NCBI GenBank assembly: GCA_965262675.1
Contig: OZ253554.1
Coordinates: 332,747-396,746, forward strand
DNA from: Terriglobia bacterium
GTDB lineage: Bacteria > Acidobacteriota > Terriglobia > 20CM-2-55-15
Direction: 5' to 3'
DNA: 64,000 nt
Positions 112 to 63,555 of this stretch are shown here, in pieces. The notes beneath the pieces were generated by a model. It did not search any database. It saw only the letters and a program-made list of their open reading frames with translations, and was not told the DNA's origin. The stretch's first letter is position 1, and every line of letters begins with the position of its first letter. The translations under genes were made by a program, and so were the position numbers.

Positions 112-401
112 CGGTGCAGAGTTGGATGGATTCCGGCGGAAGGAACAACGCCGACCGGTAGCGCCGTGTGCGAACCATGTACACGGCAACGGCCCGGCTT
201 CCCGCCTCCAGGGTGGTGTTCATTGACGTATTCTGTTCAACGATGCTCAATTGCCTTCGGTGCCGAGTTGGATGGTTTCCGGGGGAAGGAACAACGCCGA
301 CCGGTAGCGCCGTGTACGGATCGTGTACACGGCAACGGCCCGGTTACCCGCCTCCAGGATGGTGTTCATCGACGTATTCTGTTCAACGATGCTCAATTGC
401 C
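112..401. repeat. Tandem direct repeat, two copies of a 146-bp unit (112..257 and 258..401), each unit internally palindromic
   Basis: Same landmarks recur at a 146-bp period (gagttgg at 119 and 265; ctcaattgcc at 246 and 392). Each unit has a ccgtgt...acacgg hairpin whose loop differs between copies while the stem is kept. No credible ORF. Confidence 0.85.
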
Positions 402-1203: not shown

Positions 1204-2555
1204 GCCGTCTGTACGAGTTTGGGCAGCAGCGTCTCCAGGAATTGGGTCGAGACGTCACCAGACCGAAAGCGGTCGTTCTCCAACAATTTCAGATGCAGCG
1301 GAATAGTCGTCCGAACGCCTTCAACGATGAAAGTTCGCAAGGCGCGATCCATTCTACGGAGCGCTTCGTCGCGATTCGCACCATGTGAAATGACCTTGGC
1401 GATCATGGAATCGTAATACGGCGGGACATCGTATTCGGCATAGGCGGCCGTGTCCACGCGTACTCCCGGGCCGCCAGGCGGGTGCCAGGCGGTAATTCGT
1501 CCGGGTGACGGTCGTTGCGTAAAGGGATCCTCGGCATTGACCCGGCATTCGATCGCATGTCCCCGGAAGGCCACGTCGTCCTGGCAATGCGGAAGCCGTT
1601 CGGAGGAAGCCACCAGAATCTGTGCCCGCAACAGGTCAATCCCGGTGACGACTTCCGTCACGCCGTGCTCCACCTGTATTCTGGTGTTCATTTCCATGAA
1701 ATAGAAATTCAGATCGCCATCCACCAGAAATTCGATCGTGCCGACGTTGGTATAGCCCAGTTGGAGGACCGCATCCACGACTGCGGCGCCGACCCTGGCG
1801 CGGAGTTCTTCGGTCATGACAACCGAAGGCGCTTCTTCAACGAGTTTCTGGTGCCGGCGCTGAATGCTGCATTCCCGTTCTCCCAAGTGGATCGCGTTGC
1901 CGAACTCGTCGGCCAACACCTGAAACTCGATGTGACGTGGCTTGTCGACAAATTTTTCAAGGTAACAGTCGGCGACTCCGAACGAGGCCTCGGCCTCTCT
2001 TCTGGCGGTTTCGAACGCGGTCCCAAAATCCGCCTTGTCATACACGACACGCATACCCCGGCCGCCGCCGCCTGCGGCCGCCTTGACGATCACGGGAAAA
2101 CCGATTTCCACGGCCACCGATAGCGCGTGGTCCACGTCGACGAGTGGGTCCGAACTGCCCGGAAGAACGGCAAGGCCCGCGCGCGTCATCTCGCGCCGCG
2201 CCCTGGCCTTGTCACCCATGGTTCGAATGCTTTCAGCGGAGGGGCCGATGAACTTGATCCCGCATTCCGCACAAACCTGGGCAAAATGGGGATTCTCGGA
2301 GAGGAACCCATACCCGGGATGGATCGCGTCCGCGTTGGTCACCTCGGCCGCACTGATCACGCCGGGAATGTTCAGGTAGCTCTCGGCGCTTTTCGCCGGG
2401 CCGATACAGATGGCCTCGTCGGCAAACCGAACGTGCAACGCATGCCGATCCGCCTCCGAATACACGGCAACTGTCTGTATGCCCAGTTCCTTGCAGGCGA
2501 AGATGACCCGGAGTGCGATCTCACCCCTGTTGGCAATCAGTACTTTTCTGAACAT
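1200..2555 (-). CDS. accC: Acetyl-CoA carboxylase biotin carboxylase subunit
   Basis: 451 aa starting [29 protein letters not shown]-grasp core ([24 protein letters not shown]). Lies directly downstream of accB. Confidence 0.95.
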
Positions 2556-23943: not shown

Positions 23944-26079
23944 TCAATCTCGTCGGCGCGAAGCCAACAAGGCGCCGCGACATTGCCACCGGGGTGTGCG
24001 GTCCCCAGGCAATATGCAAGGCTCGGGGAAGCGCTCGGCGACGACGTGGAAATCGAGGCGTCCGATGACGCTCCCGTCCCCCGCCAACCGGCAGGACCAT
24101 TTTATTGTCCCGCCTCGGGACGCGGGATGAGGAAGATCGCGTAGGTTGGAAGGGGATCGGCGCGTCGCGGGGTTGCGGGAGACGCGTAAAGGGGGCCGCT
24201 TGCAGGCGTCGCATGGCGTCTTCGTGCCCGGCGGGCACAGGTGTCCAGCGGCGCGTCGCGCCCGATTCCGCAGGGATGTCGGGGGGGGGCAGGCTGTGGG
24301 GGCATTCAGGATGGCGTCGAGGGCATCCTGCGCGCGGGCGGCATAATGACGGTTGGCCTCGGGCAGGTAGCGGAAGCGCCCCTGGCAGCGCACGATGGCG
24401 ATGGCGGCGTTGGTGAGGCAGGCGAGATTGCGCGGCAAGTGGCGCACATAGGCCCGGCAACGGTCTTCATCGTAGGTGAAGTCGCGGACGTAGTGCAGAC
24501 GGTTTTCGATGTGCCAGTGATTCCGGACCAGGGCCAGGAGTTGCTCGGGACTGGCGCGCTCCGCATCCAGCGAGGTCAGGCAAAAGGTCACCTCGACGCT
24601 GCGCGCGCCGGTCTTGACGGTCTCGCGCTCCCGTTCGATGCGCATCGCCTGGCGGCGTCCATAGAGGTTGGCGTAACCGTCCCAGGGGGTGTCGGAGAGG
24701 TCGATGGCGGCGCAACGGCGGCGCTCGATGCGGCCATGGGCCTTCTCGAGGGTTTCGTGCGAGGGCGCGGCGCTCCAGTCGACCGACCGGAGGTCGTCAT
24801 GCATCGTGGGCTGGTTGTCCTTGATCGCGGTGACGACGTAGTCGGCGTGACACTGGTCGAGCAGGCAGCGGGCGGTGTCCTGTTGGGCATGCATCGCGTC
24901 GAGGGTGACGGTGCGTCCGGCGAGGTCGAGGCCGCCCGACAGGTCGCGCACGGCGGGGATTTCATTGGTCTTGTCGTCGATCTCTTTCTGACCCAGGACC
25001 AGGCCGGAGCCGTGCTCGACCGCCGCGACCATCATCCGGCGCCCGTGCCCGGTCTGCGCCGAGGCGCCGCGCAGGTCCTTCCCGTCCATGGCCACCGGGG
25101 CGTGAGCGGCGCTGTACTGGCCGGCCCACCGGCCGATGGCGTTGTCGAGGGTCTCGGGCGGAAGCGCCGCGAGGATGTTGTGGAAGGTGGTGATCGAGGG
25201 CGCGGTGTAGCGCTGCTTCGAGGGGCTGTAGAAGGCGCCCACGGCCTGGAGTTGCTCCTGGCTGAGCAGGCGGGCGAACTGCGCAAAGGCGGTCACCCCG
25301 CGGTAGCCGGCCAGGCGGGCCGCGACGGCGAGCGTCAGCACGGTGTGGAGCGGGTAGCGCTTGCCCCGGGCGCGGCGCCGCTCGGGCACTTCGCCCAGGC
25401 GCTCGAACAGGCTGCGCAGACGCGGCGCGGCCATGGGCGCGGTTCGGGGTTCACCGTGCCACGAGGCCGGCGTCTCGGTCTGGCTCAGCGCCTCGGCGGC
25501 ATGGCCGGTGAGTTCGAACACGAAGATCTCCTTGGGTTGGCCGTGATGGCGCCAGCGCGCCGCGCCGCCGGGCTCCCGGGCATAGCCGCGGGTCCGGCCC
25601 AGCCAGCGCCAGTTCGACGCGCGGTAGCAGGTCCCGGCAAAGCGGGCCGGATCCACGAACGTCTCTGCCAGCAAGACGGGGTAGCCGTGCGCCGCCTGCA
25701 TGTCCTGCGACAGCCGCCGCAGGCTCAGACCCAGCGCCCGCGAGGCCAGATTGGGCACCGTGCGCGGCGTCAGGATGACGAAGCGCGCGTTGTTGGCGAT
25801 CAGATGCAAGCGCTGGAACTGCTGCTCCGCGCTCCAGCCGATCCAGCGGTCGCGCGCGGCCAGCTTGAACGCGCCCGGCTGCCAGCCGATCAGCGCAAGC
25901 CAGGTCGAGCCCAGCGTCGCGACGTGGCGCAAGCCCTTCCCGAACACGCCATGAAACGGCAGGTAGTGATGGGCCGCCACCAGCCTGTCCCAGCGCCGGT
26001 GTTCCTCCGCGCCCCAGGTCGGACGCACCGCCACTGCCCGCAGATCAATATCGCAACCCTGTGCCGGTGGCCCTCCCAT
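23944..26079 (-). CDS. ISAs1-family DDE transposase with N-terminal DUF4338 (DruA-like) domain
   Basis: 711 aa. The N-terminal ~200 aa (WDRLVAAHHYL..., LIGWQPGAFKLAARDRWIGW, LIANNARFVIL, YRASNW) resemble DUF4338. The remainder has the H-repeat/ISAs1 transposase signature (GKRYPLHTVLTLAVAARLAG, MDGKDLRGA, LDAMHAQ, RNHWHIENRLHYVRDFTYDEDR). The ORF has no stop inside the IS and runs 148 nt into flanking DNA. Confidence 0.8.
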   Translation of the reverse strand: MGGPPAQGCDIDLRAVAVRPTWGAEEHRRWDRLVAAHHYLPFHGVFGKGLRHVATLGSTWLALIGWQPGAFKLAARDRWIGWSAEQQFQRLHLIANNARFVILTPRTVPNLASRALGLSLRRLSQDMQAAHGYPVLLAETFVDPARFAGTCYRASNWRWLGRTRGYAREPGGAARWRHHGQPKEIFVFELTGHAAEALSQTETPASWHGEPRTAPMAAPRLRSLFERLGEVPERRRARGKRYPLHTVLTLAVAARLAGYRGVTAFAQFARLLSQEQLQAVGAFYSPSKQRYTAPSITTFHNILAALPPETLDNAIGRWAGQYSAAHAPVAMDGKDLRGASAQTGHGRRMMVAAVEHGSGLVLGQKEIDDKTNEIPAVRDLSGGLDLAGRTVTLDAMHAQQDTARCLLDQCHADYVVTAIKDNQPTMHDDLRSVDWSAAPSHETLEKAHGRIERRRCAAIDLSDTPWDGYANLYGRRQAMRIERERETVKTGARSVEVTFCLTSLDAERASPEQLLALVRNHWHIENRLHYVRDFTYDEDRCRAYVRHLPRNLACLTNAAIAIVRCQGRFRYLPEANRHYAARAQDALDAILNAPTACPPPTSLRNRARRAAGHLCPPGTKTPCDACKRPPLRVSRNPATRRSPSNLRDLPHPASRGGTIKWSCRLAGDGSVIGRLDFHVVAERFPEPCILPGDRTPRWQCRGALLASRRRD

Positions 26080-47026: not shown

Positions 47027-47619
47027 TGTTGCCGATCACGAGAAACCGCGGTTTTTTGAACACGCGCCGATCAATCATGAACGTCTCGCGGGAGCCCTGG
47101 GACGGCCCAGTCGCCGTTGAGGAGGACGAAAGTCGGCGAAGGGGTCAATCCAGGCGCTGTGACGCAGGCATTTCACGCACTGAGACAGAGGCAGGCGCTC
47201 GTGATCGCGCGAGTTCGTGACCGAACGCACAGGCTGATGCGTCACTCCTGCCCGGGACTGGCGTCTTGGATACTCTCGCTGGCGCAACGAATGGCACAGC
47301 TTTCCCTTCGGAGACGCTTGATAGCGGCGACCAGCGGCGCGGACGTGCTGTTGTCGCATCCTCTGTCTACAGGCAACGCTGCAGTAGCGCTGTCCGCGAT
47401 CACAGCCCAAGCAGATCGTGAACATCACACCGCAGCTTGGGTCACAACATGAACGTAGTCTAACGCCGTCCGACAGGTCATCTACTCTGGAGATGGGCAT
47501 ACGTGCCACGATAACCCACGCAGGAATCGTCTTGTATCGAGAACGCGCCTTCGGCGCGGATGATGATGTCAAAAACCGGCGAGAGTCCAAAAAACTTCAC
47601 TTTCTGATGATCGCTTACA
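47027..47619 (-). mobile_element. 593-bp TIR element, copy 1
   Basis: The 45-bp ends match 32/45 (tgttgccgatcacgagaaaccgcggttttttgaac... vs rc tgtaagcgatcatcagaaagtgaagttttttggac...). Carries one 171-codon Cys-rich ORF. Confidence 0.8.
47075..47590 (-). CDS. Cys-rich (two CxxC-type clusters) hypothetical protein encoded inside the 593-bp element
   Basis: 171 codons (probable start MPISRV at 47500). Contains CCDPSCGVMFTICLGCDRGQRYCSVACRQR and CVKCLRH. An identical copy lies at 55260..55775. Confidence 0.5.
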   Translation of the reverse strand: MDSRRFLTSSSAPKARSRYKTIPAWVIVARMPISRVDDLSDGVRLRSCCDPSCGVMFTICLGCDRGQRYCSVACRQRMRQQHVRAAGRRYQASPKGKLCHSLRQREYPRRQSRAGVTHQPVRSVTNSRDHERLPLSQCVKCLRHSAWIDPFADFRPPQRRLGRPRAPARRS

Positions 47620-48560
47620 AGCGTTTCGAACCGGGTGCAGCGGCTCCCTTCGAGCTTGCGGAACGGGCGGGCATTGAGCCGGTCCAACAGTTCCGCGATC
47701 GCTTCATTCAGAGCCCCCAGACTGAAGAACCTGCGTTTGCGCAGTCCGGCCAGTATCCACCGCTCGACGACAAGCACCCCCGCCTCGGCCTTGGCCTTAT
47801 CCCGGGGTTTACGCACCCGCGCCGGAATGACGGCGATGCCGTAATGGGCGGCCATGTCCCGATAGGTGGGATTCAGATCCGGTTCGTACCGGCAGGGACG
47901 CCGGACCGCGCTCTTCAGGTTGTCCGGGACCACCAGTGCGGGGGCTCCCCCAAAGAACTCCAGCGCACGCACGTGAGAGCCGATCCAACAGGCCAGATCC
48001 TGGCTCCAGGTCGCTTCGGCGAACGTATAATTGCTGGCCCCCAGGACGGCCACGAAGATCGAGGCCTCCTGGATCGTCCCCGTCTTCGAATCCACGACGG
48101 GAACCTTCGGGCCCGCATAATCGACAAACAGCTTTTCTCCGGCCCGGTGTTCCTGCCGCAGGACCACGTCGAGCTTTCCTCTCCACTGCCGATAGAGCTC
48201 GCAGAACCGGCTGTAGGCATATCCATCCGGATTCGATTGCTTGTACTCCTGCCAGAGCCATTGCACCGTGACATGCTTGTGGCGGCGCAATTCGTCGTGG
48301 ATTGCCGCCCAATTCGGCGCCGGACGATCCGGAGCCCGCGTCGCCCGCGGTGGAAACAGTCGCGCCTCCAGCCCCGATTCATCCACGCCCTCGGGCAACG
48401 GCCATTCCACACCCGCCGCCGCGGCCCGGCGGATATAATCGCTGACCGTGCCGTGGTTGATCCCACAACTGCGGGCGACCTGTCGGTGACCTAGCCCCAG
48501 TTCGAATTTGAGTCGTAGAACTTCTTTGATCTTTCGCATGGACAATCTCTTTGCGGGCAT
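47620..48560 (-). pseudogene. istA: IS21-family transposase IstA, C-terminally truncated
   Basis: N-terminal HTH (MRKIKEVLRLKFELGLGHRQVARSCGINHGTV) and DDE region (LFVDYAG..., VVPDNLKSAV). Homology ends at ...RFETL, where the sequence becomes the 593-bp repeat. No istB is present. Confidence 0.8.
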
Positions 48561-48747: not shown

Positions 48748-48897
48748 GGTGGTGCGGGGCAGGCTGCATAGCGCCAGCAGCCGCGCCATGAAGCCCAGAT
48801 CGGCGTCTGTTTCGCTGGCCTCGACAAACTGGTTCACCTGATCGAAGCGGGTGAAGTGGTGGCGCGCTTGGGGCATTAGCTTGTCATGCTTCGGCAT
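48748..48897 (-). pseudogene. N-terminal ~50-codon fragment of a plasmid RepA_C-like replication protein, cut by the IS21 end
   Basis: MPKHDKLMPQARHHFTRFDQVNQFVEASETDADLGFMARLLALCSLPRT, followed by IS21 terminal sequence. The family assignment is from memory of the GF.AR....LP motif only. Confidence 0.35.
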
Positions 48898-49297: not shown

Positions 49298-52200
49298 TCA
49301 CTGGATCACCGGAACCACCGGCAGGGTGGTGAAGATGTGGTTGCCGGGGTCCATTTCCAGGGCTACGGCCGTAAACAGCCCCTCCCCTGTCGCGGCGCAG
49401 CGCACCGACCCCGAGAAGTCGGACGTATCGGCGGCGAGGAACGCCTGGTCGATGAACCAGGCCGTCTGCCCGTTGGCCGCAAGAGGGATGCTGGCGGCGT
49501 CGCGCAACACGCCCTCTTTCCTCAATTCGCACCGCACCAGCCCCGGACTCGATTCCAGGTTGTGGAGCGCGACCCCCGTCGTGATTCCTCCCTCCTGGCG
49601 GCGCACCGGGAAGAGGGCGTCGCTGAGGGGGAGGCTGGCCCCCACCCCGGCCACCCCGAAGTCGGGGTGGTCAAAGCGGAGCATCCCGCCGATGGGACCG
49701 TCCGAAACCACCTTCACCGATCCCGACAGCAGTTCCCCCCGCCCATGAGTCGAGATCGTGAGCACTCCCAGCGGCTCCATCTCGGTGCGGACCGTCAGCG
49801 CGCCGTCCTCGGTGACCTCCAGATTGTCCGTGATGTCCACCACCGATTCGGCGGCAATCGGATTGCCCGCGGTGTCGTAGAAATAAATAACGGGACGGGT
49901 CGGAGGGATCACCGTATGAAACGGGGTGAGGGGAGGACCGCTCGGCCGCGTCTCCAGGTTCACGAACACCAGATCGGTGATCCAGGGACCGGTGGTATAA
50001 TGCGCAAACTCCACAGCAGTCTGCTTGTTTCCGCTTCCCATCCCGTTGGCAAAATGCGCAAAGCCCAGAGTGGTCGCCTCGGGCCGTCCCCGGTTCACCT
50101 CCACCACCGGCAGCGTGGTGAAGGTGCGGGTGCCGGGATCCATTTCCAGGGCCACGGCGCTGAACCGCCTGCGGCCGGGCGCGGCGCATCGCACCGACCC
50201 CACAAAGTCCGATGTATCGGTCGCGGTGAACACCTCTTCGATGAACCCGGAGGTCTGGCCGTTGGCCTCCAGAAGGATCTCCACCTCTTCGAGCGCGACG
50301 CCCCCGCGCATCAGTCGGCAACGCACCCCCATCGGTTCCTCTCCCAAGTTGTGCAGCGCCGCCGCCGTCGTGACTCCTCCCTCCTGGCGGCGAGCCGGGA
50401 AGATGACATCCCGGACGGGGGGGCTGGCCCCCACCCCGGCCACCCCTATCTCCGGGACGTTATAGCGCACACCGCCGCCGATGGGACTCGAGACCACCTT
50501 CACCGATCCCGACACCGGCTCCCCTCGTCCGTGGGTTGAAATCGTGAGTTCGCCCAGGGGCTCCATCTCCGTTCGAACGGTCAGGCTGCCGTCCTCCGCG
50601 ATCTCCAGATCGTCCATGAGATCCACCACCGATTCCGGGTCGATGAGATGGCCCATCTGATCGTAAAAGTAGAGGGCTGGCTGGATCGGATGGGTGGACA
50701 GATTCAGGAGCACCAGATCGGAGGTGATGCCGGTCCCATTGGCGAAATGCGCAAAGTCCAGAACCACCGGCAGCGTGGCCTCGGCCCGGTTGGAAGCCCG
50801 GCTCTCGCCGATCCGGTTCACCGCCCGCACCTGGAAGACGTAGACCGTGCTGTTGGTGAGGCCGGTGACCGTATGGGTAGTGTGGGTGGAGCCGATGGAT
50901 ATCCACCTTCCCTCCCCGTTGATCCGGTACTCGTAACGCCGGATCGCAGAGCCGCCGTCGTCCTCCGGCGCGTCCCAGGCCAGCACGGCCTCGCCGATCC
51001 CGCCCGCCGCCGTCAGGTTCCGGGGCGCCTCCGGCGCCGTCAGTCGCGGGCCGCCACCTCCACCACCGCCGCCAGGTGGCCGTGTAGCGCCGCAGACGGA
51101 CCCTCGAAAAGTGATCGTCGCCAACCACGCCTGAAATGCAGTATCCGCCGGCGCACACAAATTGGTCGACCGTATATCCAACACCGAGAGTTGTGACAGC
51201 GCCGACAGGGTTAGCGGGAGGGGCTCGCTCAACATATTCTCGTTGAGATACAGGATCTGGAGGTTGGTCAGATTCCCCAGCACAGCCGGAATCGTCCCGC
51301 TCAACGTATTGCTCCAGAGAGACAGCCTCTGGAGATTCGTCAAGTCCCCCAGCTCGGCCGGGATCGCCCCGCTCAACATATTCTCGTTGAGATACAGGAA
51401 CTGGAGACTGGTCAAGTCCCCCAGCTCGGCCGGAATCGTCCCGCTCAACGTATTCCGGGAGAGATACAGCCTCTGGAGACTGGTCAAGTCCCCCAGCTCG
51501 GCCGGGATCGCCCCGCTCAACATATTCTCGTTGAGATACAGGAACTGGAGACTGGTCAAGTCCCCCAGCTCGGCCGGAATCGTCCCGCTCAACGTATTGC
51601 TCCAGAGAGACAGCCTCTGGAGATTGGTCAAGTCCCCCAGCTCGGCCGGGATCGCCCCGCTCAACATATTCTCGTTGAGATACAGGAACTGGAGACTGGT
51701 CAAGTCCCCCAGCTCGGCCGGAATCGTCCCGCTCAACGTATTCCGGGAGAGATACAGCCTCTGGAGACTGGTCAAGTCCCCCAGCTCGGCCGGGATCGCC
51801 CCGCTCAACATATTCTCGTTGAGATACAGGAACTGGAGACTGGTCAAGTCCCCCAGCTCGGCCGGAATCGTCCCGCTCAACGTATTGCTCCAGAGAGACA
51901 GCCTCTGGAGATTGGTCAAGTCCCCCAGCTCGGCCGGGATCGCCCCGCTCAACATATTCTCGTTGAGATACAGGAACTGGAGACTGGTCAAGTCCCCCAG
52001 CTCGGCCGGAATCGTCCCGCTCAACATATTCCGGGAGAGATACAGGAACTGGAGACTGGTCAAGTCCCCCAGCTCGGCCGGAATCGTCCCGCTCAACATA
52101 TTCCGGGAGAGATACAGGAACTGGAGACTGGTCAAGTCCCCCAGCTCGGCCGGAATCGTCCCGCTCAACGTATTGCTCCAGAGATACAGCTGCTGGAGGT

Positions 52201-52873
52201 TGGTCAGATTCCCCAGCTCGGCCGGGATCTCCCCGCTCAACTTATTGGCTTGGAAATACAGGTGCCGGAGGTTGGTCAAGTCGCCCAGTTCAGCCGGAAT
52301 CGTCCCGCTCAACCCATTGGCGTAGAGATACAGGATCTGGAGGTGGGTCAAGTCCCCCAGCTCGACCGGGATCGTCCCGCTCAACGTATTCTGGGAGAGA
52401 GACAGCTGCTGGAGGCTGGTCATATTCCCAAGCTCGACCGGGATCGTCCCGCTCAACATATTCTGGTCGAGTGCCAGGACCAGGAGGCTGGTCATATTCC
52501 CAAGCTCGACCGGGATCGTCCCGCTCAACATATTCTGCATGAGAAACAGCTTCTGGAGGTGGGTCAAGTCCCCCAGCGCCGCCGGGATCGTCCCGCTCAA
52601 CTCATTCTGGATGAGAGACAGCTGCACGACGCGGCCGTTTGCGTCCGTGCGGGTCCCGTACCATTCCGAGAGGGCCTCAGTGCTCAACCAGTTGGTGTTG
52701 TTCGTCCAGTTCGCACCGCCGGTCGCGTTGTAGAGCGCCACCAGCGCCGCCCGGTCCGTCTCCACGCTGCCCTGTGCGTGGGCGTTTCCACCGGTCAGAA
52801 GGAGGAAGGCCGCGAAGACGAAGACAGCGCACTTGCGCCCGTCATGGGAGTTGGAAGCGATGTCCTGCCTCAA
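49298..52873 (-). CDS. Secreted leucine-rich-repeat protein: signal peptide, LRR N-cap, ~20 plant-type 24-aa LRRs, poly-Gly linker, FN3 domain, two paralogous ~200-260-aa C-terminal domains
   Basis: 1,191 aa. Signal peptide KCAVFVFAAFLLLTGGNAHA; cap DRAALVALYNATGGANWTNNTNWLS..LSEWYG; LRR unit LxxLxxLxLxxNxLSGxIPxELGxLTx; FN3 (PRNLTAA...YEYRI...TGLTNSTVYVFQVRAVN). The C-terminal duplicated module starts at FAHFANG and ends at FTTLPVV. The start codon is TTG. Confidence 0.9.
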   Translation of the reverse strand: MRQDIASNSHDGRKCAVFVFAAFLLLTGGNAHAQGSVETDRAALVALYNATGGANWTNNTNWLSTEALSEWYGTRTDANGRVVQLSLIQNELSGTIPAALGDLTHLQKLFLMQNMLSGTIPVELGNMTSLLVLALDQNMLSGTIPVELGNMTSLQQLSLSQNTLSGTIPVELGDLTHLQILYLYANGLSGTIPAELGDLTNLRHLYFQANKLSGEIPAELGNLTNLQQLYLWSNTLSGTIPAELGDLTSLQFLYLSRNMLSGTIPAELGDLTSLQFLYLSRNMLSGTIPAELGDLTSLQFLYLNENMLSGAIPAELGDLTNLQRLSLWSNTLSGTIPAELGDLTSLQFLYLNENMLSGAIPAELGDLTSLQRLYLSRNTLSGTIPAELGDLTSLQFLYLNENMLSGAIPAELGDLTNLQRLSLWSNTLSGTIPAELGDLTSLQFLYLNENMLSGAIPAELGDLTSLQRLYLSRNTLSGTIPAELGDLTSLQFLYLNENMLSGAIPAELGDLTNLQRLSLWSNTLSGTIPAVLGNLTNLQILYLNENMLSEPLPLTLSALSQLSVLDIRSTNLCAPADTAFQAWLATITFRGSVCGATRPPGGGGGGGGPRLTAPEAPRNLTAAGGIGEAVLAWDAPEDDGGSAIRRYEYRINGEGRWISIGSTHTTHTVTGLTNSTVYVFQVRAVNRIGESRASNRAEATLPVVLDFAHFANGTGITSDLVLLNLSTHPIQPALYFYDQMGHLIDPESVVDLMDDLEIAEDGSLTVRTEMEPLGELTISTHGRGEPVSGSVKVVSSPIGGGVRYNVPEIGVAGVGASPPVRDVIFPARRQEGGVTTAAALHNLGEEPMGVRCRLMRGGVALEEVEILLEANGQTSGFIEEVFTATDTSDFVGSVRCAAPGRRRFSAVALEMDPGTRTFTTLPVVEVNRGRPEATTLGFAHFANGMGSGNKQTAVEFAHYTTGPWITDLVFVNLETRPSGPPLTPFHTVIPPTRPVIYFYDTAGNPIAAESVVDITDNLEVTEDGALTVRTEMEPLGVLTISTHGRGELLSGSVKVVSDGPIGGMLRFDHPDFGVAGVGASLPLSDALFPVRRQEGGITTGVALHNLESSPGLVRCELRKEGVLRDAASIPLAANGQTAWFIDQAFLAADTSDFSGSVRCAATGEGLFTAVALEMDPGNHIFTTLPVVPVIQ
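51269..52141 (-). repeat. Near-identical higher-order tandem repeat inside the LRR gene (72-bp LRR units organised in a 288-bp, 4-LRR super-unit, about 3 copies)
   Basis: The protein block [FLYLNENMLSGAIPAELGDLTN][LQRLSLWSNTLSGTIPAELGDLTS][LQFLYLNENMLSGAIPAELGDLTS][LQRLYLSRNTLSGTIPAELGDLTS] recurs verbatim. The opposite-strand ORF 51162..52325 shows the same exact periodicity. Confidence 0.9.
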
Positions 52874-52886
52874 TTGTGCCGTGTCC

Positions 52887-52975
52887 TCTTGGCTCTTGGC
52901 TCTTGGCTCTTGGCTCTTGGCTCTTGGCTCTTGGCTCTTGGCTCTTGGCTCTTGGCTCTTGGCTCTTGGCTCTTG
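52887..52975 (-). repeat. Heptanucleotide microsatellite (GCCAAGA on the minus strand; tcttggc on plus), 12 full copies + 5 nt
   Basis: Perfect 7-bp period from 52887 to 52970 (84 nt), then tcttg. It ends 14 nt upstream of the LRR start codon. Confidence 0.95.
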
Positions 52976-53096
52976 TGATAGGGTGGACGGACTGGCATTT
53001 CATTTGTCAAGCTCTTATTGGAATATTCGACAACGTGGTTCTACAGTCCTAACCCGGCGTAGCCGGAACCAAACAGGAATCCGGTAAGATGCCGGA

Positions 53097-54620
53097 ATGA
53101 GTATCGAACTGCTGACCGACCGGTACGCGAAACAGATCGCGGGAACGATTTCCTGCTACGACCGAATGCTACTCTTCGGGACGCTTCCGCAGATTTGCTA
53201 CGCGGAAGGGATGACCTCACTGTTGTACTCCCGCAATATCCGCATCTTCGATTATCCGCGCTTTGCGGAGCCATTCCGGAATCGGATCCGGGACAACGCC
53301 CATAAACTGGCATCCGATCACGGCATCGAGATCGAACACATCCGTAAGAAGAACTTCCGTAAGGAAGACAGGATTCGGAAGATCATCGCCGAGCGCGGCG
53401 ACGAGCCGGGCCTGGTGGCGATCTTCTCGGCCATGGAGCCGTGCGCGACGTTCAAGCCGTGGCATAACAAACAGTCTGGAAAAACGTACTTGATCTCGGA
53501 TCGGAGTAAGTGCCTGCACTATTACTTCTACTTCCTCGATGAAGAACTGGGCCTGTGCTATGTGCGCGTACCCACATGGTTGCCGTGCCGTCTACAAGTC
53601 TATTTCAACGGTCATAACTGGCTGGCCCTCCAGTTGAAACGCCGGCGCATTCCCTATCGGATGCTGGACAATGCCTTCGCCCACATCGGCGACTGGAGTC
53701 GGGCGCAAGAGATCGCCGACCGCCTGGAGGCCCGCCGCATCCACGAAAGATTGGATCGGTTTGCCCGTCAGTATTGCCCCATCATCGAACACTTCGATCT
53801 CGTGTATCACTGGAGTCTGAACCAATGCGAATACGCCACCGATGCGGTGTTCCGCCGGCAGGCCGATCTTGGGCCCATTTACGCCAATCTCACCCGCACG
53901 GCGATTCATACCGTCAAGCCCGATAACATCGCCACGTTTCTCGACCGCAAACTCCACCCCAATTACCAGGATGAAATGGGCAACCGTTTCAACATCCGAA
54001 TCGAAGGCGCCCGTATCAAACACACCATGGGACCGGTTTCATTGAAGCTCTATGACAAATCCGGCCTCATTCTCCGCATCGAGACCACCGTCAACGACGT
54101 GTCCTTTTTCAAGCACTACCGGAAGGTAGAACATCGCAACGGCGCCTGCGAAACCAAGTGGGCTCCCATGCGGAAAACCATCTACAGCCTGCCCCCACTG
54201 GCCGAACTGCTGACCGCCGCCAATCGCCGCTATCTGCAGTTCCTGTCGACCATCGAGGATCCCCGCGTCGGCCACCACAACATCGAGAAGCTCTCCCGCA
54301 CCGTCCGCGAAAACCTCCGCTCCCATCGCGGCTTCAACTTCTTCGACGCCGAAGACCAACTCCTGTTTGAAACCATCGCCCGTGGCGAGTTCAACATCAG
54401 CGGCTTTCAGAACAAAACTCTTCGACGCCACCTCTCTCACAAAACTTCCCCGCAAGTCTCCCGCATGCTCAAATGTCTCCGCGCCCATGGTCTCATCAAG
54501 AAGATTGGCCGCACTTACAAGTACTACCTCACCCTCTTCGGTAAACAAGTCATCGTCACCGGATTGAAACTCAAACATCTCGTCATCTTTCCTCAACTCG
54601 CTTTGCCTTCTACTCCATGA
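53097..54620 (+). CDS. Conserved-looking hypothetical protein (507 aa) with a possible C-terminal winged-helix
   Basis: Long ORF of clearly lower GC, divergent from the LRR gene. No catalytic motif recognised. The C-terminus (SRMLKCLRAHGLIKKIGRTYKYYLTLFGKQVI) looks like a MarR-type wHTH. Confidence 0.6.
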   Translation: MSIELLTDRYAKQIAGTISCYDRMLLFGTLPQICYAEGMTSLLYSRNIRIFDYPRFAEPFRNRIRDNAHKLASDHGIEIEHIRKKNFRKEDRIRKIIAERGDEPGLVAIFSAMEPCATFKPWHNKQSGKTYLISDRSKCLHYYFYFLDEELGLCYVRVPTWLPCRLQVYFNGHNWLALQLKRRRIPYRMLDNAFAHIGDWSRAQEIADRLEARRIHERLDRFARQYCPIIEHFDLVYHWSLNQCEYATDAVFRRQADLGPIYANLTRTAIHTVKPDNIATFLDRKLHPNYQDEMGNRFNIRIEGARIKHTMGPVSLKLYDKSGLILRIETTVNDVSFFKHYRKVEHRNGACETKWAPMRKTIYSLPPLAELLTAANRRYLQFLSTIEDPRVGHHNIEKLSRTVRENLRSHRGFNFFDAEDQLLFETIARGEFNISGFQNKTLRRHLSHKTSPQVSRMLKCLRAHGLIKKIGRTYKYYLTLFGKQVIVTGLKLKHLVIFPQLALPSTP

Positions 54621-54770
54621 CTCCCCATCATTTTCTGCCTCGAATGGTCAGAATCCGAATATAGAGGTACTAAATCTTTACGCAGAGGTAGTGAAAATAC
54701 ATCGTATCATGGCCGTGCGGACCTGCTTTGGAATGACGACCGATTAAGTGACGCGCCTACGGCTCTGATA

Positions 54771-55211: not shown

Positions 55212-55804
55212 TGTTGCCGATCACGAGAAACCGCGGTTTTTTGAACACGCGCCGATCAATCATGAACGTCTCGCGGGAGCCCTGGGACGGCCCAGTCGCC
55301 GTTGAGGAGGACGAAAGTCGGCGAAGGGGTCAATCCAGGCGCTGTGACGCAGGCATTTCACGCACTGAGACAGAGGCAGGCGCTCGTGATCGCGCGAGTT
55401 CGTGACCGAACGCACAGGCTGATGCGTCACTCCTGCCCGGGACTGGCGTCTTGGATACTCTCGCTGGCGCAACGAATGGCACAGCTTTCCCTTCGGAGAC
55501 GCTTGATAGCGGCGACCAGCGGCGCGGACGTGCTGTTGTCGCATCCTCTGTCTACAGGCAACGCTGCAGTAGCGCTGTCCGCGATCACAGCCCAAGCAGA
55601 TCGTGAACATCACACCGCAGCTTGGGTCACAACATGAACGTAGTCTAACGCCGTCCGACAGGTCATCTACTCTGGAGATGGGCATACGTGCCACGATAAC
55701 CCACGCAGGAATCGTCTTGTATCGAGAACGCGCCTTCGGCGCGGATGATGATGTCAAAAACCGGCGAGAGTCCAAAAAACTTCACTTTCTGATGATCGCT
55801 TACA
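55212..55804 (-). mobile_element. 593-bp TIR element, copy 2 (identical to 47027..47619)
   Basis: Identical sequence at an offset of 8185. Confidence 0.8.
55260..55775 (-). CDS. Cys-rich hypothetical protein (second identical copy)
   Basis: Its 171-aa translation is identical to that of 47075..47590. Confidence 0.5.
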   Translation of the reverse strand: MDSRRFLTSSSAPKARSRYKTIPAWVIVARMPISRVDDLSDGVRLRSCCDPSCGVMFTICLGCDRGQRYCSVACRQRMRQQHVRAAGRRYQASPKGKLCHSLRQREYPRRQSRAGVTHQPVRSVTNSRDHERLPLSQCVKCLRHSAWIDPFADFRPPQRRLGRPRAPARRS

Positions 55805-63430: not shown

Positions 63431-63555
63431 TTCATGCGGTCAACTAACGTGCCAATTCATGCGGCCAAACCACGTGCTAATTCATGCGGCCAAACCACGT
63501 GCTAATTCATGCGGCCAAACCACGTGCTAATTCATGCGGCCAACTCATGTGCTGT
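63431..63555 (+). repeat. Five tandem copies of a 25-bp unit (ttcatgcggccaaaccacgtgctaa)
   Basis: The three central copies are identical (63456..63530) and the outer two are degenerate. Each has a cacgtg palindrome. Intergenic, ~250 bp upstream of typA. Confidence 0.9.

Follow-up and report, generated by a model that had tools for sequence, protein, structure and literature searches.

The LRR gene and its genomic surroundings

The window, by which we mean the whole 64-kb stretch of DNA analysed here, lies in a 5.54-Mb contig. Its taxonomic placement by TypA was ambiguous, since the top matches, at 73-77% identity, were to MAGs labelled Rhodothermales, Nitrospirales, Thermodesulfobacteriota, and Binatia. 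As summarized in Table 1, its minus strand was found to carry a gene for a large secreted protein, which is preceded by a heptanucleotide tract and a short leader, and an insertion-sequence-like element was located upstream of the leader. The 1191-aa ORF is intact, and its product gave Pfam matches to LRR_1, LRR_14 and LRR_8 as well as to fn3. The signal peptide was predicted from its n, h and c regions and an AXA site, all of which were read by eye. The LRR array (51226..52622) was shown to consist of 72-nt and 144-nt DNA repeats with 83-87% identity. In addition, the number of LRRs was observed to vary between gene copies that share an apparently circular contig (P0274, 883 aa; P0310, 1108 aa), which gives this gene another way of varying in length besides the tract.

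Table 1. Coordinates of the features identified at the LRR locus
Feature	Coordinates	Strand	Basis
Plasmid RepA_C-type gene, 5' fragment, downstream of the LRR gene	48750..48897	minus	blastn
Gene for a 1191-aa secreted protein with ~19 plant-type LRRs, one FN3 and a duplicated C-terminal domain of ~260 aa	49298..52873	minus	Pfam, DNA repeats
Predicted signal peptide, MRQDIASNSHDGRK-CAVFVFAAFLLLTGG-NAHA/QG (slash, cleavage position)	52775..52873	minus	translation
TTGA, TTG start of the LRR ORF overlapping the TGA of the upstream ORF (ATG 52998 / TTG 53010)	52870..52873	minus	ORF list
AAGAGGA purine box from the last partial unit, possible Shine-Dalgarno sequence 11 nt before the TTG	52884..52890	minus	sequence; function inferred
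Heptanucleotide tract, slippage-prone element, (AAGAGCC)x12 + AAGAG, 12.71 units	52886..52974	minus	sequence read, TRF
Leader head, GCTTGACAA and a 30-nt spacer with ATG 53003..53001 and ATG 52998..52996	52975..53012	minus	family comparison
Insertion-sequence-like element with ORF 53097..54620 (507 aa)	53048..54674	plus	relatives, alignment of copies

The C-terminal 600 aa of the LRR protein had 1776 relatives at E <= 1e-10, nearly all from ENA metagenome assemblies; among the 120 matches listed, identity ranged from 63 to 76%, and the N-terminal heads varied. An exact-protein look-up of the LRR protein and of the 507-aa ORF returned 0 matches, and so did exact flank patterns searched in metagenome_contigs and genome_contigs; a further assembly of the same strain did not emerge from these look-ups. 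The homologous loci described below were reached by protein-based routes only, and DNA was fetched around several of the relatives.

The insertion-sequence-like element is ~1.63 kb long with a single ORF, and its right end was placed at ~54674 from the aligned copies. What appears to be a divergent intergenic region arose because this element was inserted 37 nt upstream of the TTGACA motif of the leader. As many as 156 relatives of the 507-aa ORF were confirmed in Acidobacteriota, Chloroflexota, Gammaproteobacteria, Nitrospirota and other phyla, in some genomes as multiple copies, and many of them reside on contigs of 1.5 to 3 kb. The protein matched no Pfam family, NCBIfam family or solved structure, apart from a weak C-terminal winged-helix signal, and its single-sequence AlphaFold model had a pLDDT of 32. 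The element has no terminal inverted repeats, and its left end bears a hairpin (CCGGC-GTA-GCCGG). The 507-aa ORF may represent an undescribed transposase family. The heptanucleotide tract was also considered as a terminal or subterminal repeat of the element; this was rejected, as the left end at 53048 lies 72 bp away from the tract, and 120 loci with the same heptamer did not have flanking genes in common. The element is not part of the switch discussed below.

On the other side of the LRR gene, the RepA_C fragment showed 79-90% identity by blastn to the starts of RepA_C genes located after the LRR gene in five homologous loci (L201, L202, L207, L325, and L328). A 360-aa ORF (47478..48560) matched the rve integrase core domain and can be read as an IS21-like remnant that truncates the RepA_C fragment. 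Furthermore, a perfect 593-bp direct repeat (47027..47619 and 55212..55804) brackets an 8.2-kb segment holding the IS21-like remnant, the RepA_C fragment, the LRR gene, the tract, and the insertion-sequence-like element. Given the RepA_C fragment, the 593-bp repeats, and the size of the contig, the LRR gene looks like plasmid cargo integrated into a chromosome, and the arrangement of the repeats suggests integration or rearrangement of such cargo. The window copy, being chromosomal, adjacent to an insertion sequence, and diverged in its spacer, may be poorly transcribed or decaying. Elsewhere in the window, a 25-nt tandem repeat of 4.5 copies (63431..63543), a 146-nt repeat of 2 copies (112..401), and 2 kb of 68-73% G+C against ~60% elsewhere (24001..26000) were recorded.

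The heptanucleotide tract and its reading frames

The tract is a perfect, non-random tandem repeat with a unit length not divisible by 3, and it has the length needed for slippage. The (GCCAAGA)x12 array described in the initial annotation was confirmed at 52887..52970, ending 14 nt before TTG 52873 in the minus-strand reading. Tandem Repeats Finder reported 52886..52975 with a period of 7, 12.9 copies, 100% matches, and 0 indels and, together with a pattern search, revealed it to be the sole long heptamer array within the window. When a two-unit pattern with at most one mismatch was searched, 11 overlapping matches were obtained versus 0 in 100 dinucleotide-preserving shuffles.

The frames around the tract, as assigned in the initial annotation, held up against the ORF list and frame bookkeeping. 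The LRR frame is open upstream as far as a TGA at 53002..53000 and contains no ATG, GTG, or TTG before TTG 52873. ATG 53003 opens a 53-codon ORF (52842..53003), and the ORF of ATG 52998 stops at the TGA 52872..52870 that overlaps the TTG start, a frame and stop that it shares with TTG 53010. From its distance of 130 nt to the TTG, ATG 53003 comes into frame after a loss of one unit or a gain of two, and ATG 52998, at 125 nt, after a gain of one unit or a loss of two; since ATG 53003 occupies the third frame, every gain or loss of units other than in multiples of 3 would join one or the other ATG to the LRR ORF. In the window copy with its 12 full units, both upstream ATGs are out of frame and the TTG start lies 3' of the tract. 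Because the upstream starts are all out of frame, the LRR protein of the window, if made, must start at the TTG. The TTGA overlap there is compatible with termination-reinitiation, and the sequence at the overlap, CAATTGAG, is kept in the window, L201, L205, L207, and L330, L206 having CAATTGCG.

Tract length among homologous loci

The family comparison set comprised 13 loci, 10 of which were independent (Table 2). Eight distinct tract lengths, from 1.7 to ~18 units, were found among these 10 loci, with both in-frame and out-of-frame alleles present. In-frame loci accounted for 4/10, which is near the one third expected without selection. Expressed as full units, n was 1 mod 3 in 4/10 loci, 0 mod 3 in 6/10, and 2 mod 3 in 0/10; the absence of the last class among ten loci has a probability of (2/3)^10 = 0.017 in what is a post hoc test. 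In the subfamily of the window, this n = 2 mod 3 class is the one whose upstream ORF would run on past the TTG. In favour of a switch, the gene calls of family members with an unexpanded tract use that same upstream ATG in frame (P0025, P0079, P0191, and others); against it, for P0312 the gene caller took a downstream start despite an upstream ATG in frame.

Table 2. Heptamer tracts of the ten independent loci, in order of length
Locus	Units	Tract variant	Frame of the upstream start
L206	1.71		ATG in frame
L201	3.71		ATG out of frame
L207	3.71	GAGAGCC variant unit	out of frame
L204	6.71	GAGAGCC variant unit	out of frame
L328	6.71		ATG out of frame
L326	9.71		ATG out of frame, GTG in frame
L330	10.71		ATG in frame
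Window (WIN)	12.71		out of frame
L325	13.71		ATG in frame
L205	18.43	two 6-nt units included	in frame

The decisive comparison was provided by two pairs of near-identical alleles, each of which differs by exactly 7 units. Upstream, the identity between L201 and L330 is 99.3% over 1 kb, and downstream it is 98.5% over 600 nt. These two loci carry 3.71 and 10.71 units, respectively; the ATG directly after TTGACA is out of frame in the former and in frame in the latter (MERGIGSQNHKSQEPRAKSQEPRAKSQEPRAKSQEDMAQLRQDIAS...). Likewise, L325 (13.71 units) and L328 (6.71 units) share an upstream flank of 99.9% identity. The reading frame of the ATG continues across the tract as far as the signal peptide in L325 (P0274); in L328, the ORF of the same ATG ends after 32 codons, and the gene call starts inside the signal peptide (P0309, MFLSVDNALAQ). 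In the subfamily of this second pair (P0274/P0207), the stretch from the tract to the hydrophobic core of the signal peptide contained no ATG, GTG, or TTG, and thus a complete signal peptide from a canonical start requires translation of the tract. The proposal of the initial annotation that the tract is a slipped-strand switch is therefore backed by natural alleles of 1.7 to ~18 units, with the ATG in and out of frame within both pairs. The (AKSQEPR)n-type leader it had predicted was found in the gene calls P0121, P0274, and P0207 and in the reading frame of L330.

As for the context of these loci, plasmid genes were identified in seven family contexts, in the form of RepA_C together with MobA/MobL, MobC/NikA-like, MazE/PemK, or Tn3-type genes. 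Four family contig names end in "_c", which was taken to denote circularity, and a repeated gene order within the contigs agrees with it. Most of the retrieved family members reside on contigs that bear plasmid genes, and four of these contigs seem to be circular.

These alleles indicate that translational phase variation by slippage is probably the working mechanism of the tract, which would act as a hypermutable contingency locus. Replication slippage would add or remove 7-nt units, and as 7 is not divisible by 3, each unit change would reset the frame between the starts that follow TTGACA and the signal-peptide ORF. At n = 1 mod 3 in full units, the conserved upstream ATG would be fused to this ORF, yielding a pre-protein with (KSQEPRA)n ahead of the signal peptide, and in the other length classes the upstream ORF would end early. 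In the window, at n = 12, LRR translation would proceed from the TTG behind AAGAGGA, possibly by termination-reinitiation. Judging from the aligned loci, the recurrent expansion and contraction of the tract, always at the same position of the conserved leader, is genuine; slippage as its cause, a high switching rate, and an effect on the level or export of the protein are presumed from it. A point against a switch is that the TTG after the tract, or the ATG in its place in L201 and L330, would make the protein possible at any tract length, and because this conserved TTG start follows the tract, the ON/OFF behaviour of the window copy is putative.

The conserved leader

All 13 family loci listed (10 independent) were found to share the same order of elements, namely an invariant GCTTGACAA, a spacer that places the start of the tract 29-30 nt after TTGACA, the heptamer tract, and the signal-peptide ORF. 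The spacer of the window matches that of L201 at 17/30 positions when counted by hand. The AAGAGGA box is kept in the window, L201, L205, L206, and L330, and reads GAGAGGA in L207. In the subfamily of the window, which is recognized by the leader peptide ...TAQLRQDIAS..., a conserved TTG with AAGAGGA before it lies 12 nt after the tract, and at 3 nt past the tract an ATG is found in L201 and L330 but ACG in the window. On the 5' side of the upstream ATG, a GGAG, AGAG, or AGGG box was observed at a distance of 7-8 nt.

A similar module was also encountered in a different gene context. On the reverse strand of L078 (CBDCKF010000002.1, a Terriglobia MAG), at ~2026..2219, AAGAGCTTGACA is followed by ~30 nt and (AAGAGCC)22.7, and the module precedes an unrelated long ORF with its own signal peptide. 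The leader module may thus not be limited to the LRR/FN3 family. We tentatively consider, as a broader possibility that we hold with considerable doubt, that GCTTGACAA, 30 nt, and (AAGAGCC)n constitute a portable contingency cassette, which would serve as a three-state translational switch for a very large family of eukaryote-like surface proteins with LRR, FN3, or other heads, encoded on small mobilisable plasmids in uncultured bacteria of the environment. In the first state, the long leader would be fused; in the second, the TTGA overlap would couple an upstream ORF to the TTG; and in the third, an upstream ORF would overrun the start. The third length class missing from the ten loci and the L078 module both hint at such a cassette.

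Phase variation of translation is not the only role that a tract at this site might play. Tract length could instead modulate the 5' UTR, in the manner of hmw1A: transcription would be driven by a promoter with TTGACA as its -35 element and begin near the first unit, the TTG (in L201 and L330, the ATG) would always be the start codon, and the number of units would tune mRNA stability or translation efficiency. We regard this explanation as unlikely. The invariance of TTGACA would suit it, and so would the position of the tract, as 29-30 nt further on is approximately where a sigma-70 transcript starts; in L206, L325, and L326, moreover, a hairpin between the upstream gene and TTGACA has the look of a terminator followed by a promoter. 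The promoter itself, however, was not found: a sigma-70 scan of the window detected none, and no -10 element was present at 16-19 nt from TTGACA in any family locus, which makes a sigma-70 promoter with TTGACA as the -35 element doubtful. Consequently, of the promoter alternative raised in the initial annotation, the perfect TTGACA at 53010..53005 stands and the -10 element at canonical spacing is missing. TTGACA may rather act as the spacer of a ribosome-binding site, as judged from its position between the GGAG/AGAG box and the upstream ATG. The conservation of the TTG and its AAGAGGA box is likewise in line with a constant start behind a 5' UTR, and in H. influenzae the heptamer in the 5' UTR of hmw1A does set the expression level (PMC12721329). 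Against this, the leader RNA was predicted to be unusually unstructured: the 211-nt leader gave an MFE of -46.1 kcal/mol versus a shuffle mean of -58.1 (z = +2.88), with 199/200 shuffles folding at least as well, and a hairpin of the hmw type was accordingly rejected. A search of the window and the leader for known RNA families was also negative. Furthermore, in the P0274/P0207 subfamily, which has no start after the tract, the tract must be translated.

The repeat unit in other genomes

Arrays of at least 4 units of the AAGAGCC heptamer were detected in >120 species-level genomes with G+C contents of 30 to 73%, scattered across distant phyla and next to unrelated genes. In viral contigs, the target heptamer occurred at 13 loci, compared with 12, 8, and 3 for three control heptamers of the same composition. 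The idea of GCCAAGA as a special or horizontally spread unit was rejected on these grounds, namely the unrelated flanking genes and the nearly equal frequency of control heptamers. Side by side with the AAGAGCC arrays, other heptamer arrays were seen at ~22 per Mb versus 1.3 per Mb in unrelated loci. In two Terriglobales MAGs, a syntenic gene whose N-terminus is the same in both has (AAGAGCC)6 (L011) or (AAGAGCC)4 (L104) at 0 or 6 nt ahead of its ATG, respectively; CAGTACC-type heptamers precede both arrays.

As recounted in the part of MacGregor 2015 (PMC4679880) that cites Mrazek 2007, heptanucleotide repeats are the most abundant class of 5-11 nt repeats in most genomes, the repeat-richest genomes included Burkholderia, Xanthomonas, actinobacteria, and cyanobacteria, and the function of long simple-sequence repeats was left open. 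In view of the repeat-rich genomes described there, the remark in the initial annotation that such loci were not known from high-GC environmental lineages proved too strong. The uncommon part of the present locus is the direct allelic evidence of frame consequences, and not heptamer arrays as such.

The abundance of heptamer arrays beside unrelated genes, the similar counts of control heptamers in viral contigs, and the rank of heptamers as the commonest class of long simple-sequence repeats in that same account of Mrazek 2007 (PMC4679880) would all be expected if the tract were a neutral mutational by-product, with the leader of the chromosomal copy, cut off by an insertion sequence, being a relic; the diverged spacer of the window and the insertion sequence 37 nt upstream point in the same direction. 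Such an origin seems improbable to us, because expansion recurs at the same leader site in several subfamilies while the flanks remain 99% identical, the frame consequences are real in the subfamily lacking a downstream start, no locus among ten falls in the n = 2 mod 3 class (0.017, post hoc), and the 1191-aa ORF has stayed intact. That tract length merely reflects assembly or sequencing error is very hard to credit, for although repeat lengths are prone to misassembly and several comparison contigs have a coverage of only 2x to 5x, the tract of the window is perfect and sits in a 5.54-Mb contig, the alleles differ by whole 7-nt units, contig coverage is 13.6x for one allele and 17-18x for others, and duplicates within one contig or sample agree (L207/L208, L326/L327, and L328/L329).

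Comparison with known systems

The closest analogue of the LRR locus is neuO of E. coli K1, where the 5' coding region contains (AAGACTC)n and the gene is switched ON by unit numbers divisible by 3, and for which alleles of 3-53 units, about one third of them in frame, were reported in 64 genomes (PMC13001214). The two loci resemble each other in having a similar heptanucleotide (AAGACTC versus AAGAGCC) between a start codon and the gene body, in allowing full-length translation in one of three length classes over a wide range of alleles, and in that a heptad peptide results from the repeat whichever frame is read. They differ in the product, which is an O-acetyltransferase in one case and a secreted LRR/FN3 protein in the other, and in the carrier, since neuO is borne by a phage (the CUS-3 prophage) in a pathogen, whereas the LRR family comes from uncultured bacteria and mainly from contigs that carry plasmid genes. 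In addition, the window has a second start (TTG) after the tract, overlapped by the stop of the upstream ORF, and switching is putative here. Homology to the NeuO/CUS-3 context was ruled out by the LRR and fn3 domains of the protein and by the plasmid replication and mobilisation genes around it; the LRR locus is analogous, and not homologous, to neuO, hmw1A, and the opa systems.

In hmw1A and hmw2A of Haemophilus influenzae, (ATCTTTC)n repeats of naturally variable number lie in the 5' UTR and form a long hairpin that is cleaved by RNase III (PMC12721329). As in the LRR locus, a heptamer array is thus positioned upstream of a gene for a large secreted adhesin-like protein. Unlike the hmw leader with its hairpin, the leader studied here is predicted to be unstructured, and the tract lies inside an ORF in the sister loci instead of a 5' UTR.

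In the opa genes of Neisseria, CTCTT repeats are located in the region coding for the leader peptide. The likeness is that each member of a surface-protein multigene family has a frame-shifting repeat where its export leader is encoded; the opa unit is a pentamer instead of a heptamer, and opa genes are chromosomal, belong to a host-restricted pathogen, and have no conserved second start codon after the repeat. Opa phase variation is listed in a review (PMC11868660). Among environmental bacteria, TAACTGA repeats were described in Beggiatoaceae and cyanobacteria, where tandem heptamers likewise stand just upstream of start codons in non-pathogens (PMC4679880). Those arrays are numerous in each genome and have no known function as far as that source relates it from Mrazek 2007 (PMC4679880), in contrast to the single array within the 64-kb window, which occupies a fixed leader site and has in-frame and out-of-frame alleles.

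Implications for the LRR/FN3 family

Heptanucleotide switches as such are already known from neuO and hmw1A, and what is unusual in the present case is the setting: a plasmid-associated and very large family of eukaryote-like surface proteins in uncultured environmental bacteria. Contingency loci have usually been discussed as a signature of host-adapted pathogens. The same contingency logic is now met in the leader of a very large secreted LRR/FN3 family from uncultured environmental bacteria, whose in-frame and out-of-frame alleles can already be seen in public long-read assemblies. For the annotation of this family, it follows that the start codon assigned to a gene, and whether its N-terminus looks truncated, depends on how long the tract is in the molecule that happened to be sequenced. 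If expression follows tract length, small plasmids would supply stochastic switching of surface proteins in environmental communities, and if the leader indeed is a portable cassette, this would amount to plasmid-level bet-hedging of surface display outside any pathogen.
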